From Octopus vulgaris (lineage: Eukaryota): a stretch of DNA of 64,000 nucleotides. A model generated the notes under the pieces. That model had not been told where the DNA came from and did not search any database. It saw only the letters and a list, made by a program, of their open reading frames with translations. Within the stretch, counting starts at the first letter, position 1; the number at the start of each line of letters is the position of its first letter. Both the position numbers and the translations under genes were made by a program. Below, in pieces: positions 4,617-62,574 of the stretch. Location: contig OX597830.1 of the NCBI GenBank assembly GCA_951406725.2, forward strand, positions 18,600,001-18,664,000. The letters are read 5' to 3'.

Positions 4617-4779
4617 ATCTTGAGAAAGGTAAATTAGTACAGTTAAAATATAAACAGATTATGGTATCTAATTTAACATAGAGTCCTGCAATGTCTGTAA
4701 TGTAATCAGTAAGGCAGTCACCCAACAAGCAAGAGATATGTGGTCTGAATCTTGTTGGTGGGTTTACTGCTACTTTTTT

Positions 4780-5365
4780 ATTCCTTTATTGCCCACAAGG
4801 GGCTAAACATAGAGGGGACAAACAAGGACAGACAAACGGATTAAGTCGATTACATCGACCCCAGTGTGTAACTGGTACTTATTTAATCGACTCCGAAAGG
4901 ATGAAAGGCAAAGTTGACCTCAGTGGAATTTGAACTCAGAATGTAGCGGCAGACGAAATGCCTATTTCTTTACTACCCACAAGGGGCTAAACACAGAGAG
5001 GACAAACAAGGACAGACAAAACGGATTAAATCAATTATATCGACCTCAGTGCGTAACTGGTACTTATTTAATTGATCCCGAAAGGATGAAAGGCAAAGTC
5101 GACCTTGGCGGAATTTGAACTCAGAACGTAGCGGCAGACGAAATGCCTATTTCTTTACTACACACAAGGGGCTAAACATAGAGGAGACAAACAAGGACAG
5201 ACAAACGGATTAAATCGATTACATCAACCCCAGTGCGTAACTGGTACTTAATTTATGGACCCCGAAAGGATGAAAGGCAAAGTCAACCTCGGCGGAATTT
5301 CAACTCAGAACGTAGCAGCCGACGAAATACGGCTAAGCATTTCACCGGCCGTGCTAATGTTTCTG
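4780..5365 (-). mobile_element. tRNA-derived SINE family B, 3' part tandemly triplicated
   Basis: Three ~184-bp units containing GCCTTTCATCCTTTCGGGGTCGAT-like/AAGTACCAG; matches monomers at 40.2, 47.1 and 54.3 kb. Confidence 0.9.
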
Positions 5366-10218: not shown

Positions 10219-11465
10219 AACTTTGATAGGTTTTGCCCAGTATCGGCCCAGGCATGTTTAACTTAATAGTACCACCTAGTGAAGTCTTTTAGTCATATAT
10301 GGGGCACCATAGCCCACTCTAGCAAAGAGTTATTATTGTTGGAGACATATTCAGGTGTAAGAGGTTTTTGAAGAAATTTGTCCAGTGAACATTTGAATTT
10401 TATGCGATCCGTTTCCGTTTTGACGTATTTTGGTATGGTATTAAAGAGAGCTGGGCCAGTTGGGGTAAAGTAATTGTGATGTAATGTTGCTATGTGTACC
10501 AAGTTCAATTTTTGTAGTGGGTGGATAGCACGGGGTCCAAGTCTTGGATGGATTTTAAAATTGATGCCAACATCATTTGTGCAATACTGATGGAATATTT
10601 TCCACGTCACACAAATGATGTAGCGCTCTCGACAGCATTGGAGAGAGTAGAGATTGAGTTTTTTAATCAACCCCAATAATCAATGCCTCTCATGCCATCT
10701 ATCTTTCTTGTTATTGACCTCTGGATTGCTTCTACTTTCATAATGAGTTGCTTCATATGGGAGGACCACAACGGGCAACAGTATTCAAGGTGGGGGTCAG
10801 GCAAAAGTAGAGTAGAGAAGGATGATGGCCTAGGCATCTCTAGACCAGAAAGTTCTCAGAATTCAGGAGCATATCTTGTGGGCTAAGTCAACCTTGCTGT
10901 TTAAATGGGGACTCCAGATTTTCAATGTAGAATGTTTGATGTCGTTGATGTAAATAATGAAGAGGAGTAGGCCCAACACAGTACCTTGTGGGACACCACT
11001 ACTGACTTTGGCTGAGCTGGATTGTATTCCTTCAAACACATGTTAGGCTCTGTTTGACAGGAAACACTTTATCCACTGCAGCAGCTTTCCATGGACTCCA
11101 ATGTTGGACAGTTTCTTCAGCAGGATTTTGTGGTCCATTCTGTCAAATGCCTTGCTGAAATCAAGGTATATGATGTCAGTGTTGGAGCCCTCTCCCAACG
11201 CTTTTAAGATGTCATCAAAATAGTGCAGAAGCTGCGACAGGCAGTCCCTGCCACCACGGAAATCGTGCTGGTTGGGGTCCAGCAGACTGTTGTCTTTGAG
11301 GAAGTGAGTTATTTGCAATCTCACCACCCTCTCACATACTTTAATGATATGAAAAGTGAGTGAAATCAGATGGTTGTTCACCGCAAGAGATTTGTTTCCC
11401 TTTTTGAAGACTGGAATGATAGACTGGGAAAGAAAATGATCAGCAATGTCTCCTGCATCAAGTGA
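10219..11465 (-). mobile_element. CR1/L2-clade LINE, 5'-truncated, decayed reverse transcriptase and 3' end
   Basis: [65 protein letters not shown] motifs; frameshifts; internal deletion near 10920 removes the YADD segment. Confidence 0.9.
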
Positions 11466-11744
11466 GTTTCACTTAGAGCTCAGCTAGAAGTTCCTCATCA
11501 TTAATATGTTCTCAGCATGACACTGATGGGTGAAACACTTAATAATGTTGAGGCATTCCTTGAAGCGTAGAAAAGAGCCCAACTACTATTAAATTGCTAT
11601 ATATATATATATATATATGCATACATATGTATATACATATATACAGGCAGTTTTTACATGCTAGAAGAAGCAGTCAAAACGACCAAAATCACATTTAAGA
11701 GCAATCTTCAAAAGGAATGAAAAATAAAAACTTTATATATATAT

Positions 11745-50407: not shown

Positions 50408-51020
50408 TTTTAACATCAGATTTAGAATCTGCAAAAACGTTCATGTGTAAAGATTTTTTATTCAAAATGACTATTTCATAAATGGAAATATTCAACAAAT
50501 GAATGACAGTAATTTAGTATATCAATATTGTAGTGATATGTCTTCCACCAAAATCTTAAAAGTAATCCTAGCCAATCCTAATCACCCAATTAATAGTCTT
50601 AATATTCAAAAACAAGAGTCATGATGACAGATTTGTTACGTTTAAGATCAAACAGTGACATAATGTGGTTAAACAGAGATGAGATCTACAGCTGATAGTG
50701 ATTATTTATAACATATTTTCAAACCATATCGATATTTATGACCAAGGATTCATAATTTTTATATTGTATTTATTGGTATTTTTTAATTTTATTTGTCCCA
50801 TATAGACTGAAAATGAAAATCAGTCATAAAGCTTATACAATAATAAAAAAAAGAAAACCTTCAATATAATCTGAAAATAAATTTCACAAAATTATACAAT
50901 AAACCATACAGCAAACATTCATATATATGTTATCTTGACTGAGTAAGAAATGCTATTAGACATTGACTAACGAGAATCATTCCTTTTTTAATCAAAAGAA
51001 ATTTTTGAAAAATTAAAAAG

Positions 51021-51266
51021 ATTTTTGTCACTTTGAAACCACGACCTGTTCACTGACAAAATTCCGTGCTGCATCTCTTTTGTCAGTGAACGGGTCGTGG
51101 TCTCTAAGCGACAAAAATATTTTGACAAATTAAATTTAAATGTTGAAGTGATTCTAATGGTTTTTGTGTGTCTCTTAAATGGCTTATAAACACCTTCCAC
51201 GCTGCAATTGTTTTCATTCCAGCACACGATCTCAGATCAGGTCACGTGCTATGCAAGTACATCTCT
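51021..51266 (+). mobile_element. Hammerhead (G3-C8) retroposon family, decayed copy with inverted 5' segment
   Basis: Homologous to 62341-62545; 51021-51060 is an inverted copy of the ribozyme motif at 51079-51129. Confidence 0.75.
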
Positions 51267-51858
51267 GTAAAAAAAATTTGTTTTTGCATTTTTGTAATTA
51301 GTATGTTCAGACATATACATAACAAAAATCGGGGTTCGAATATATATATATATTTTTAAAGTTCGAGGGTGCATGATCTGTCTGCAGAAAATTATAGCAC
51401 TCTACATTTCTGAGTCACCTTAGTCATCTTTTCCATCACCAATTAATCTTGGATTTCAGTGTCCTAAATTGCCAAGACTGATTGTAATATTACGAGTGCT
51501 TTTACTTCCTGCTACATACAATAAATAGCATGAAACAGGAAACTGATACATGGTTTCTCATCTGTGATCCCAAAAGAGTTATAGGATGAGGCAGGAAGGA
51601 GCTCCTGTCACTCCAATAGGTATTTTTCAGGCTCCCTCAATGACACTGTCTAGGTCTGGGTATTTGCCTAACTTCCTATCTAGGATGGGTGGTTTTTTTC
51701 CTCGTCTAATGATGATTCATTATAGAGCCACCAAAATTAGTGGAAGAAGGTATCCTTAAACTGGAAATCCAGCCCAAATGCCTGTCACAATGTGAGACCT
51801 ACTAAAGTTACTGAAGGTACCATATAATAGTGTTAAACCAGGTGACAAATCTGTCACC

Positions 51859-60600: not shown

Positions 60601-60703
60601 CTCTAAATTGATAGAATCACACTTCATAATTAGTTGTTGTGTAGTTTCCCAGTTGAACCTTGACTGATCAAAGAAATTCTAGCTGTTTCTTTATTTTTGG
60701 GCC

Positions 60704-61579
60704 GTGACTGCTGAGGACATGCGTAAGCTCATGAGGAATGAAGCCAGTATGCTCCGATGGATGTGTAATGTCAGTGTACATACTCGACAGAGCGTTAGTA
60801 CCTTGAGAGAAATGTTGTACCTAAGAGGCATCAGTTGTGGTGTGCAAGAAAGACGATTGCGCTGGTATGGTCATGTGGCGAGAATGGATGAAGATAGATG
60901 TATGAGAAAGTGCCAATCCCTAGCAGTTGAGGGAACCCGTGGAAGAGGTGGACCCAGGAAAACCTGGGACGAGGTGGTGAAGCACGACCTTCGAACTTTA
61001 GGCCTCACTGAGGAAATGACCAGCGACCGAGACCTTTGGAAATATGCTGTACGTGAGAAGACCAGGCAGGACAAGTGAGCCCAGCCCACTTATGCATGCC
61101 TTTCCTCCCTTGGACACAAAGACCTGTTGAGGCAAGCGAAGTCAATATAGAACCTCATCCGACGACAGGCACCCATGCCAACCCCCTTTGCTTGTGAAGA
61201 CATGTTGGGGCAAGCGAAATCGAAATCGAATTGAACCAGCCAGGACACCTGGACTGGTGGTACGTAAAAAGCACTATCCGACTCGTGGCCGATGCCAGCG
61301 CCGCCTCGACTGGCTTCCGTGCCGGTGGCACATAAAATGCACCAATCCGACCGTGGCCGTTGCCAGCCTCGCCTGGCACCTGTGCAGGTGGCACGTAAAA
61401 AGCATCCACTACACTCATGGAGTGGTTGGCGTTAGGAAGGGCATCCAGCTGTAGAAACACTGCCAGATCAGACTGGAGCCTGGTGCAGCCTTCTGGCTTC
61501 CCAGATCCCCGGTCGAACCGTCCAACCCATGCTAGCATGGAGAACGGACATTAAACGATGATGATGATGATGATGATGA
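60704..61579 (+). mobile_element. 5'-truncated RTE-clade LINE (ORF C-terminus + 3' UTR + (GAT)n tail)
   Basis: MLRWMCNV...ERRLRWYGHVARMD...GTRGRGGPRKTWDEVV...DRDLWK is a typical RTE RT C-terminal region. Confidence 0.92.
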
Positions 61580-62259
61580 ATGCGACCTTCTTTTTGAAGA
61601 CTTTGAGGGAATAATTTGAAGGAGACTTAGCTGCTATTTCTCACAGGTTAAATCACCATGTAGAGGCACCTTTATTGGCTTGTAATCACTGTTGTTTATA
61701 GAAGTTGACCAGGGGTGGGGAAACTTTTTAGTGTGGTGGGCAAAAATTTCCAATGATAAAGGTCTGCGGGTGGATCACAAGTTCTAACCCTTATATTTGT
61801 GTAAATCTTGTATATACCTATGTATAATTCAATATACAGTAATAAAGGTAGATTTAACACATTAAATTAACACATAACATCTTCATTAACGCCACCACTG
61901 AATTTAGGATGTTTATATTATTTAGGAGGAGGTATACCCTATTTTTCAGCTAGAGTATAGTTGGGTCTCAAGGGGGTGGTACAAACTTAGCAATATGTGT
62001 TTTATAGTGAAAACAAAATTTCCATTCAAATGGCAATTACCAGAATATTTTTGATTATAGTTAGCTTGTATATATATATACACACATATAAATACACACA
62101 CATGAAGATGCCAACTTGACATCTTTATATTGATTTGTTGCTTTGACATCAGATCATCTTTTTATAGGATAGGATCAATGCAATCAGTTGAGTTGATTTA
62201 GCATACATCTTGTGTCAAGTTTTATTGACTCGGATTTGAAGGGAAACAATTTAATATTC

Positions 62260-62549
62260 AACAATTGCAGCGTGGAAGGTGTTTATAAGCCATTTAAGAA
62301 ACACACAAAAGCCGTTCGATTCACTTCAACATTTAAGTTTAAATCCGTGCTGCACGATTTTTGTCAGTGAACAGGTCGCGGTCTTAAAGCGACGAAAATA
62401 TTTTGACAAATTAAACTTAAATGTTGAAGTGAATCGAACAGCTTTTGTGTGTTTCTTAAATGGCTTATAAACACCTTCCACGCTGCAATTGTTTTCGTTT
62501 CAGCACACGATCTCAGATAAAATTACTTGCTATGCAAGTACATTTCCAT
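62260..62549 (+). mobile_element. Hammerhead (G3-C8) retroposon with inverted 5' segment
   Basis: 12-bp TSD AATTTAATATTC (62248-62259 / 62550-62561); 62260-62342 is the reverse complement of 62411-62493. Confidence 0.82.
62360..62410 (+). ncRNA. Minimal type I hammerhead with G3-C8 compensatory core
   Basis: Stem I UUUGUCA/UGACAAA; core GUGAACA-G; stem II GUCGC/GCGAC; GAA + palindrome AAUAUU + U. Confidence 0.7.
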
Positions 62550-62574
62550 AATTTAATATTCTATTGGTTTAGAC

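Follow-up and report, generated by a model that had tools for sequence, protein, structure and literature searches.

The insertion analysed here lies in a 64-kb stretch of Octopus vulgaris DNA, hereafter the window. Sequence comparison within the window revealed a 12-bp exact direct repeat, AATTTAATATTC, at 62248–62259 and 62550–62561, which flanks the insert as a target-site duplication (TSD); the first four bases of its right copy also agree with the 3' end of the inserted element (microhomology). The insert contains two arms of 83 nt each, 62260–62342 and 62411–62493, that are 99% complementary. Both the exact TSD and the 83-bp inverted copy at the 5' end had been described in a first-pass annotation of this DNA and were recovered here. 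The direct arm (62350–62549, forward strand) is 94% identical over 194 nt to a tandem copy at another locus, L107. It comprises a leader, a minimal type I hammerhead motif (62360–62410, forward strand) and the first 30 codons of a reverse transcriptase (RT)-endonuclease open reading frame (62460–62549, forward strand; MAYKHLPRC...), the frame of which runs on in tandem copies, and it terminates at the second of two fixed 3' ends (about +148, counted from the predicted cut). The inverted arm (62260–62342, reverse strand) is a copy of element positions +7 to +89 and ends at the first fixed 3' end; beside it, at 62344–62354 on the reverse strand, is an 11-nt stretch from the element's 5' end (–55 to –45), likewise inverted. 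Taken with the long arm, this stretch reads as an inverted copy from which the hammerhead stem-loop is missing. As a separate observation, the inverted arm (62260–62354, and likewise that of locus L017) omits this stem-loop almost exactly, as though copying had jumped the base of stem I.

Elsewhere in the window, a second and more decayed copy of the same family occupies 51016–51270 (forward strand), with a short inverted 5' arm; it too carries G3-C8, and its A9 is changed to G. No Penelope-like open reading frame was seen in the open reading frame list for the 64-kb window. Two fragments in that list, at 10293–11468 (reverse strand) and 60683–61078 (forward strand), are by resemblance what we take to be remnants of LINE reverse transcriptases. 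A 185-bp unit, present in three tandem copies at 4779–5328, resembles a common octopus SINE.

We assigned the hammerhead motif from its sequence, its predicted folds, family counts and cross-family pair counts. Stem I pairs 62360–62366 with 62404–62410, and stem II pairs 62375–62379 with 62389–62393. Between them lies the core GUGAACA (62367–62373), in which G3 is 62367, C8 is 62372 and A9 is 62373; one extra G (62374) follows A9 and precedes the G10.1-C11.1 pair. The remainder consists of GAAA (62394–62397), the palindrome AAUAUU (62397–62402) and U17 (62403). The minimal type I topology and the reversed G3-C8 core were thus read correctly in the first-pass annotation, and its predicted cut, between 62403 and 62404, is correctly placed relative to U17. 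U4, G5, A6, A9, G12, A13, A14, A15.1-U16.1 and H17 are all present, both in this sequence and in column counts over 248 arms. Stems I and II appear in the minimum-energy fold of the whole insert. The 55-nt motif alone gives the same stems at minimum energy (z –2.9; one of 200 shuffles was equally stable), and in the natural leader of L107 the energy model assigns the stem pairs probabilities of 0.7–1.0. The palindromic stem III is available for dimer pairing; a dimer is possible and is disfavoured in the energy model, where a hammerhead-shaped dimer reaches –27.0 kcal/mol as against –29.0 for two monomers and –32.0 for an alternative dimer.

The published consensus for minimal hammerheads of Penelope-like elements (PLEs) has C3 and G8 within a CUGANGA box. 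The octopus motif departs from this box and retains a Watson-Crick 3-8 pair; it is therefore a variant outside that consensus. An Rfam scan of the region returned eight matches at E <= 10, none of them a hammerhead. One of these, to MIR6140 (71 bits; gathering threshold 140), was set aside as a mere reflection of the long hairpin. Rfam was equally blind to sister motifs with canonical cores at loci L167, L187 and L483, so the earlier suggestion that the swap hides this family from CUGANGA searches accounts for only part of the matter.

To place the insert, three widely spaced copy pairs were examined for a parent element. The pair at L061, 2.5 kb apart, encloses a GIY-YIG endonuclease. The locus L070 was rejected as a tandem segmental duplication, and L071 and L072 were rejected because they hold no endonuclease reading frame. 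With the L061 endonuclease as query, we obtained 150 scored matches from 7,874 candidates, many of them 94–98% identical, and 29 of the top 30 loci (the query locus being one of the 29) carry the GUGAACAG core about 1 kb beyond the stop codon. The element's endonuclease was identified as PF01541 (GIY-YIG). A 1,025-aa open frame, P0002, combines a Cys-rich linker with a C-terminal PF01541 domain and RT motifs recognised by eye; Pfam returned no RT match for P0002, and its relatives carry RT-domain protein names. In the tandem copy at L107 the leader continues into the reading frame, with an ATG equivalent to window position 62460 and the motif 56 nt ahead of it. Along the leader and the opening codons, the insert follows the coding element colinearly, at 92–95% identity. 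It is therefore a short copy, consisting of the leader and 30 codons, of a Penelope-like element that is young and codes for a protein with RT and GIY-YIG domains. The element has the traits of endonuclease-bearing (EN+) PLEs: one reading frame that encodes RT and, at its C terminus, GIY-YIG; partial tandems; inverted copies truncated at the 5' side; a tail at one end; and AT-rich or microsatellite targets. A quick RT tree of 24 rows, including 22 of 120 listed homologues, holds none of the named clade references (Neptune, Nematis, Penelope/Poseidon); from the appearance of its Cys-rich linker, the element may be of the Neptune type. Scanning metagenomes with the reading frame retrieved two short contigs.

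We then asked how the core behaves across the 2.8-Gb genome. A pattern that left positions 3, 7 and 8 free found 5,024 exact matches, against none for its reversed control; the motif is thus not a product of chance. G3 is missing from 114 of the 5,024 and C8 from 277, so that about 92%, or some 4,600 copies, are G3-C8. The first-pass annotation had asked whether G3 and C8 are fixed together across copies, and to this extent they are. Among 100 listed matches without G3, ten have C3, and by eye all ten keep C8 and none has G8. The variants lacking G3 or C8 look like the outcome of independent decay after insertion. Independent variation of the two positions among copies, which the annotation took to speak against a covariant pair, is uninformative, because inserted copies decay separately at each position. 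In four public contig sets, bearing four organism labels, no alternative letter at position 3 or 8 reached the 5% level among the matches listed. The motif is also covered by contigs from presumed RNA runs, which carry no information on strand, level or ends.

One departure from uniform decay was noted. C8 is replaced by G in 5 of 186 arms (2.7%), on every subfamily background, whereas C/G transversions elsewhere in the arms amount to 0.38%. The G3-G8 copies were considered as an intermediate or source subfamily and this was ruled out: on a rough tree the 20 arms require ten changes, at least three of them forced. In one insertion, moreover, the two arms differ at this position (C8 and G8).

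Older relatives with G3-C8 also exist, some of them retrieved by a pattern that itself fixed G3-C8. They differ from the young family at N7, in loop II and in the length of stem III, from which it appears that the reversed pair has outlasted the turnover of its surroundings.

Related families were found by searching the genome with the N-terminus of the reading frame (35–45% identity), and hammerheads of the same build sit upstream of their reading frames. The RT of family B is 55% identical over 815 aa and is sister to that of the G3-C8 family in the quick tree (SH-aLRT 100). Family B has many open frames of 1,311 aa, and its protein is 98.9% identical to an NCBI protein named from Octopus vulgaris. 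Its motif (for example L141:1628-1679) gave 4,060 matches; among the first 100, C3 occurs in 97 and G8 in all 100. In 92 of these 100 matches C replaces A9, and six retain A9; the replacement was apparently carried along as the youngest subfamily expanded. Family C, 35–42% identical at the N-terminus and represented by 3,276 matches, is U3-A8 in 86 of the first 100 (for example L176:1494-1544). One of its subfamilies, with loop AAGAA, has G8 together with C3 or U3 (four loci, L483-L486), which is a possible path from C-G to U-A. Finally, an old family, D, has stems I and II in common with the G3-C8 family and carries a pyrimidine at 3 and a purine at 8; in its decayed copies position 3 is C or U and position 8 is G or A, and decayed copies of D and C also give U3-G8 and C3-A8.

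We aligned 12 motifs picked by hand as clean, leaving aside L194 and L175 as decayed or mis-cut copies, together with L484-L486, which are U3-G8. In this set the 3-8 pair is G-C in five, C-G in four and U-A in three, with no unpaired case, a pattern that amounts to three or four family-level events rather than 12 independent ones. At two pairs of stem II both partners vary among the 12, and sliding the partners abolishes the signal. U4, G5, A6, G10.1, C11.1 and G12-A15.1 are invariant, and the flanks diverge. Between related families, then, these alignments indicate that a change at position 3 is matched by one at position 8, and stem II shows compensatory substitutions as well. The covariant family proposed in the first-pass annotation is accordingly to be relocated: pairwise change is seen between families, and within the G3-C8 family the pair is fixed rather than covarying.

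To examine how copies are made, we sampled 85 insertions with 134 arms by way of a motif that lies downstream of the hammerhead. The loci come from the first 100 of its 6,747 matches, and these 100 are confined to contig 1. Nearly all arm 3' ends, 125 of 134, fall at +83 to +92 or +143 to +149 from the predicted cut. At the other end, 76 of the 134 arms start at –62 to –42 and five extend further upstream. The predicted cut itself leaves no footprint in this sample, since only one of 134 arms starts exactly there and four start within 3 nt, where about 3.5 are expected from the local background; the templates were therefore mostly uncut. Two aligned pieces, nearly always inverted, make up 49 of the 85 insertions, and the inverted arm is absent from the other 36; where present, its length differs between copies. 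Most sampled copies are short and share one fixed start. (TA)n adjoins 53 of 84 insertions; of the 31 that lie elsewhere, 21 are flanked by TSDs of 9–14 bp. TSDs, an inverted arm and two fixed 3' ends are described as usual for PLE insertions (bioRxiv 10.1101/2021.04.23.441226; PMC11167929), and the two 3' ends agree with the two internal RT start sites described for the anole element (PMC11167929).

On the 5' side, the fixed end lies at AGATG. In 14 of 41 arms it is preceded by a G missing from the template, some instances of which may be microhomology, and this combination suggests a capped transcription start. A spliced template as the source of the fixed end was unsupported, since the 41 arms have no common upstream exon. 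No splice joint at this end was found in the four contig sets, whose contigs could miss it. Just before the fixed 5' end, L107:5200-5222 resembles a 3' splice site, with a branch-point-like CTAAC, a pyrimidine run and AG. In the Penelope element of Drosophila virilis an intron terminates at helix I. For the octopus element, a transcription start at the AG of L107 fits the copy ends better than splicing does.

These observations appear to suggest the following sequence of events. Transcription would begin about 58 nt upstream of the cut site, and the element's protein would nick AT-rich DNA. Reverse transcription would initiate within the RNA at two sites, +88 and +148, and copying would proceed through the uncut hammerhead to the RNA 5' end; use of both start sites would leave a direct and an inverted arm between TSDs. 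Over longer times, selection would have preserved a Watson-Crick 3-8 pair while its bases changed, which points to a need for the catalytic fold at some step.

Roughly every second insertion in the sample forms a near-perfect inverted repeat of 50–150 bp. Inside transcripts, such insertions would yield double-stranded RNA and so be possible substrates for A-to-I editing.

The octopus motif has much in common with the minimal hammerheads described from PLEs (PMC4209133). The portions of that work drawn on here describe the same type I layout, extra nucleotide between 9 and 10.1, G10.1-C11.1 pair, palindromic stem III and common U17, as well as the position in flanking repeats and thousands of mostly solo copies with some inverted pairs. 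It differs in its core, GUGANCA as against the CUGA or UUGA starts in the Fig. S3 rows of PMC4209133, and in its extra nucleotide, a G where the consensus there has H; U3-A8 is the sole core covariation named in those portions. Poseidon of Anolis carolinensis, in the relevant sections of PMC11167929, likewise has a hammerhead beside the start of its reading frame, two internal RT start sites by which the tail is delimited, AT-rich targets and uncut RNA as its main template. The octopus element is distinguished from it by a tail of about 60 nt, an ATG 56 nt past the cut site and a Cys-rich linker before the endonuclease. Moreover, G3-C8 is natural in the octopus, whereas in Poseidon it is a laboratory mutant (C3G/G8C) that partly restores cleavage (PMC11167929). 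In the same account, cutting of the anole motif required protein, catalytic mutants inserted normally in vitro, and no RNA ends were found at the site. Naiad elements are reported, in the sections concerned, to have spread without a hammerhead (bioRxiv 10.1101/2021.04.23.441226).

Natural hammerheads with U3-A8 have been described, and family C is of that kind (PMC3088659). They display the same 3-8 covariation; U3-A8 preserves the pyrimidine-purine order, whereas G3-C8 reverses it and goes unmentioned as a natural state in the passages of PMC3088659 that treat this pair. The Watson-Crick 3-8 pair is described there as a trait of the active conformation. In pairwise mutagenesis, as summarised in part of PMC9901934, the swap was the sole rescue in the CUGA region. 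G3-C8 with C17 is stated to be less active than with G17 in a remark of PMC3884650, which does not give the data. The U17 of the octopus motif may reduce a competing 3-17 pair. Literature searches, including one combining octopus, Penelope and hammerhead, returned no natural G3-C8, and published surveys could still contain examples; in the printed passages retrieved, we found G3-C8 only as an engineered partial rescue and U3-A8 as a natural state.

Taken together, the sequence comparisons make it likely that these leaders carry a natural G3-C8 hammerhead variant, present in about 4,600 copies, with putative cutting activity. We consider it probable, with reasonable confidence, that the insert is a truncated copy of a coding PLE whose G3-C8 leader hammerhead is likely a weak ribozyme, cutting only as a dimer or with its own protein. 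Predicted cleavage is in any case likely to be weak or conditional. The lack of a pile-up of arm 5' ends at the predicted cut, the A9C change of family B, a hammerhead-shaped dimer modelled as 2 kcal/mol less stable than two monomers, the behaviour of the anole mutants and the spread of Naiad elements all count against a cut that is needed.

Several of these points lend some weight to a different account, in which the motif descends from a hammerhead whose fold, including the 3-8 pair, has been kept for a role in the leader, such as protein binding, RNA dimer formation or translation, and the cut has become dispensable. Copies derive mostly from uncut RNA. Family B has spread despite A9C; strict conservation of the core is thus not a rule in this group of elements. 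The anole catalytic mutants insert normally in vitro with cut-site RNA ends absent (PMC11167929), and hammerheads in viral 5' UTRs have been linked to translation (PMC13725137). A purely structural role would, however, leave unexplained why G12, G5, A6, A13, A14 and H17 are kept across families along with a 3-8 pair that belongs to the active conformation (PMC3088659), and the anole motif does cut once protein is added (PMC11167929). We therefore regard this account as unlikely, at roughly one chance in five.

A dead relic is far less likely still. Here G3 and C8 would have arisen by two unrelated changes in the source element and been amplified passively, the pairing being coincidental or a feature of a promoter (+24 to +36 of the inferred transcript). 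Separate decay of positions 3 and 8 within the family, G3-G8 copies on every subfamily background and a covariation of only three or four family-level events are what such a relic would leave. It must nevertheless accommodate three well-sampled families that each hold a different Watson-Crick 3-8 pair, and the two transversions that lead from C3-G8 to G3-C8. The persistence of G3-C8 in older relatives with changed loop, N7 and flanks also argues against it, as does the scatter of G3-G8 copies, which form no source clade.

The first-pass annotation had pictured a retroposon mobilised by Penelope-type machinery; the hammerhead is indeed of PLE type, but the element is not an independent one, as coding copies carry the same G3-C8 motif. 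A non-autonomous retroposon of about 290 bp, SINE- or retrozyme-like, with its own inverted repeat and mobilised in trans, would account for the short copies with one fixed start that predominate in the sample, and is scarcely credible given the colinearity and 92–95% identity with the coding element, inverted arms that vary in length and are absent from 36 of 85 insertions, and the lack of head-to-tail arrays of a short unit among the loci examined. A non-LTR retrozyme (non-coding head-to-tail repeats of 170–400 nt with a canonical type I hammerhead) was likewise rejected, the inserts being single, dispersed and colinear with the coding element.

Returning to the weak or conditional ribozyme in a PLE leader, a bolder version can be put forward tentatively, at somewhat less than even chances. 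An active natural G3-C8 hammerhead, previously unpublished, would exist in thousands of animal retrotransposon copies; one genome would hold three 3-8 states (C-G, U-A and G-C); GUGANCA would be an overlooked class across PLEs and phages; and the cut would have been retained for a step that comes late or is gated by protein, because the RNAs that give rise to new copies are uncut. Structures and mutants were the original basis for the 3-8 pair. That related families within one genome each carry a different Watson-Crick pair there, the reversed one included, is natural evidence for selection on the active-site geometry of these weak ribozymes. The G3-C8, U3-A8 and C3-G8/A9C families, two of which have long open reading frames, also constitute matched material for separating cutting from fold alone, and descriptor searches for hammerheads should admit G3-C8.

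Viral contigs were searched as well. In raw counts G3-C8 (about 140) was no more frequent than G3-G8, which served as an unpaired control (about 210). Filtering by structure left 2 of 94 distinct viral G3-C8 matches and 0 of 84 controls. The only viral match resembling a full type I hammerhead is L292:101-134, on a 170-kb viral contig (IMGVR_UViG_3300019776_000919), in which G3-C8 occurs together with UA at the cleavage site and a long stem III.
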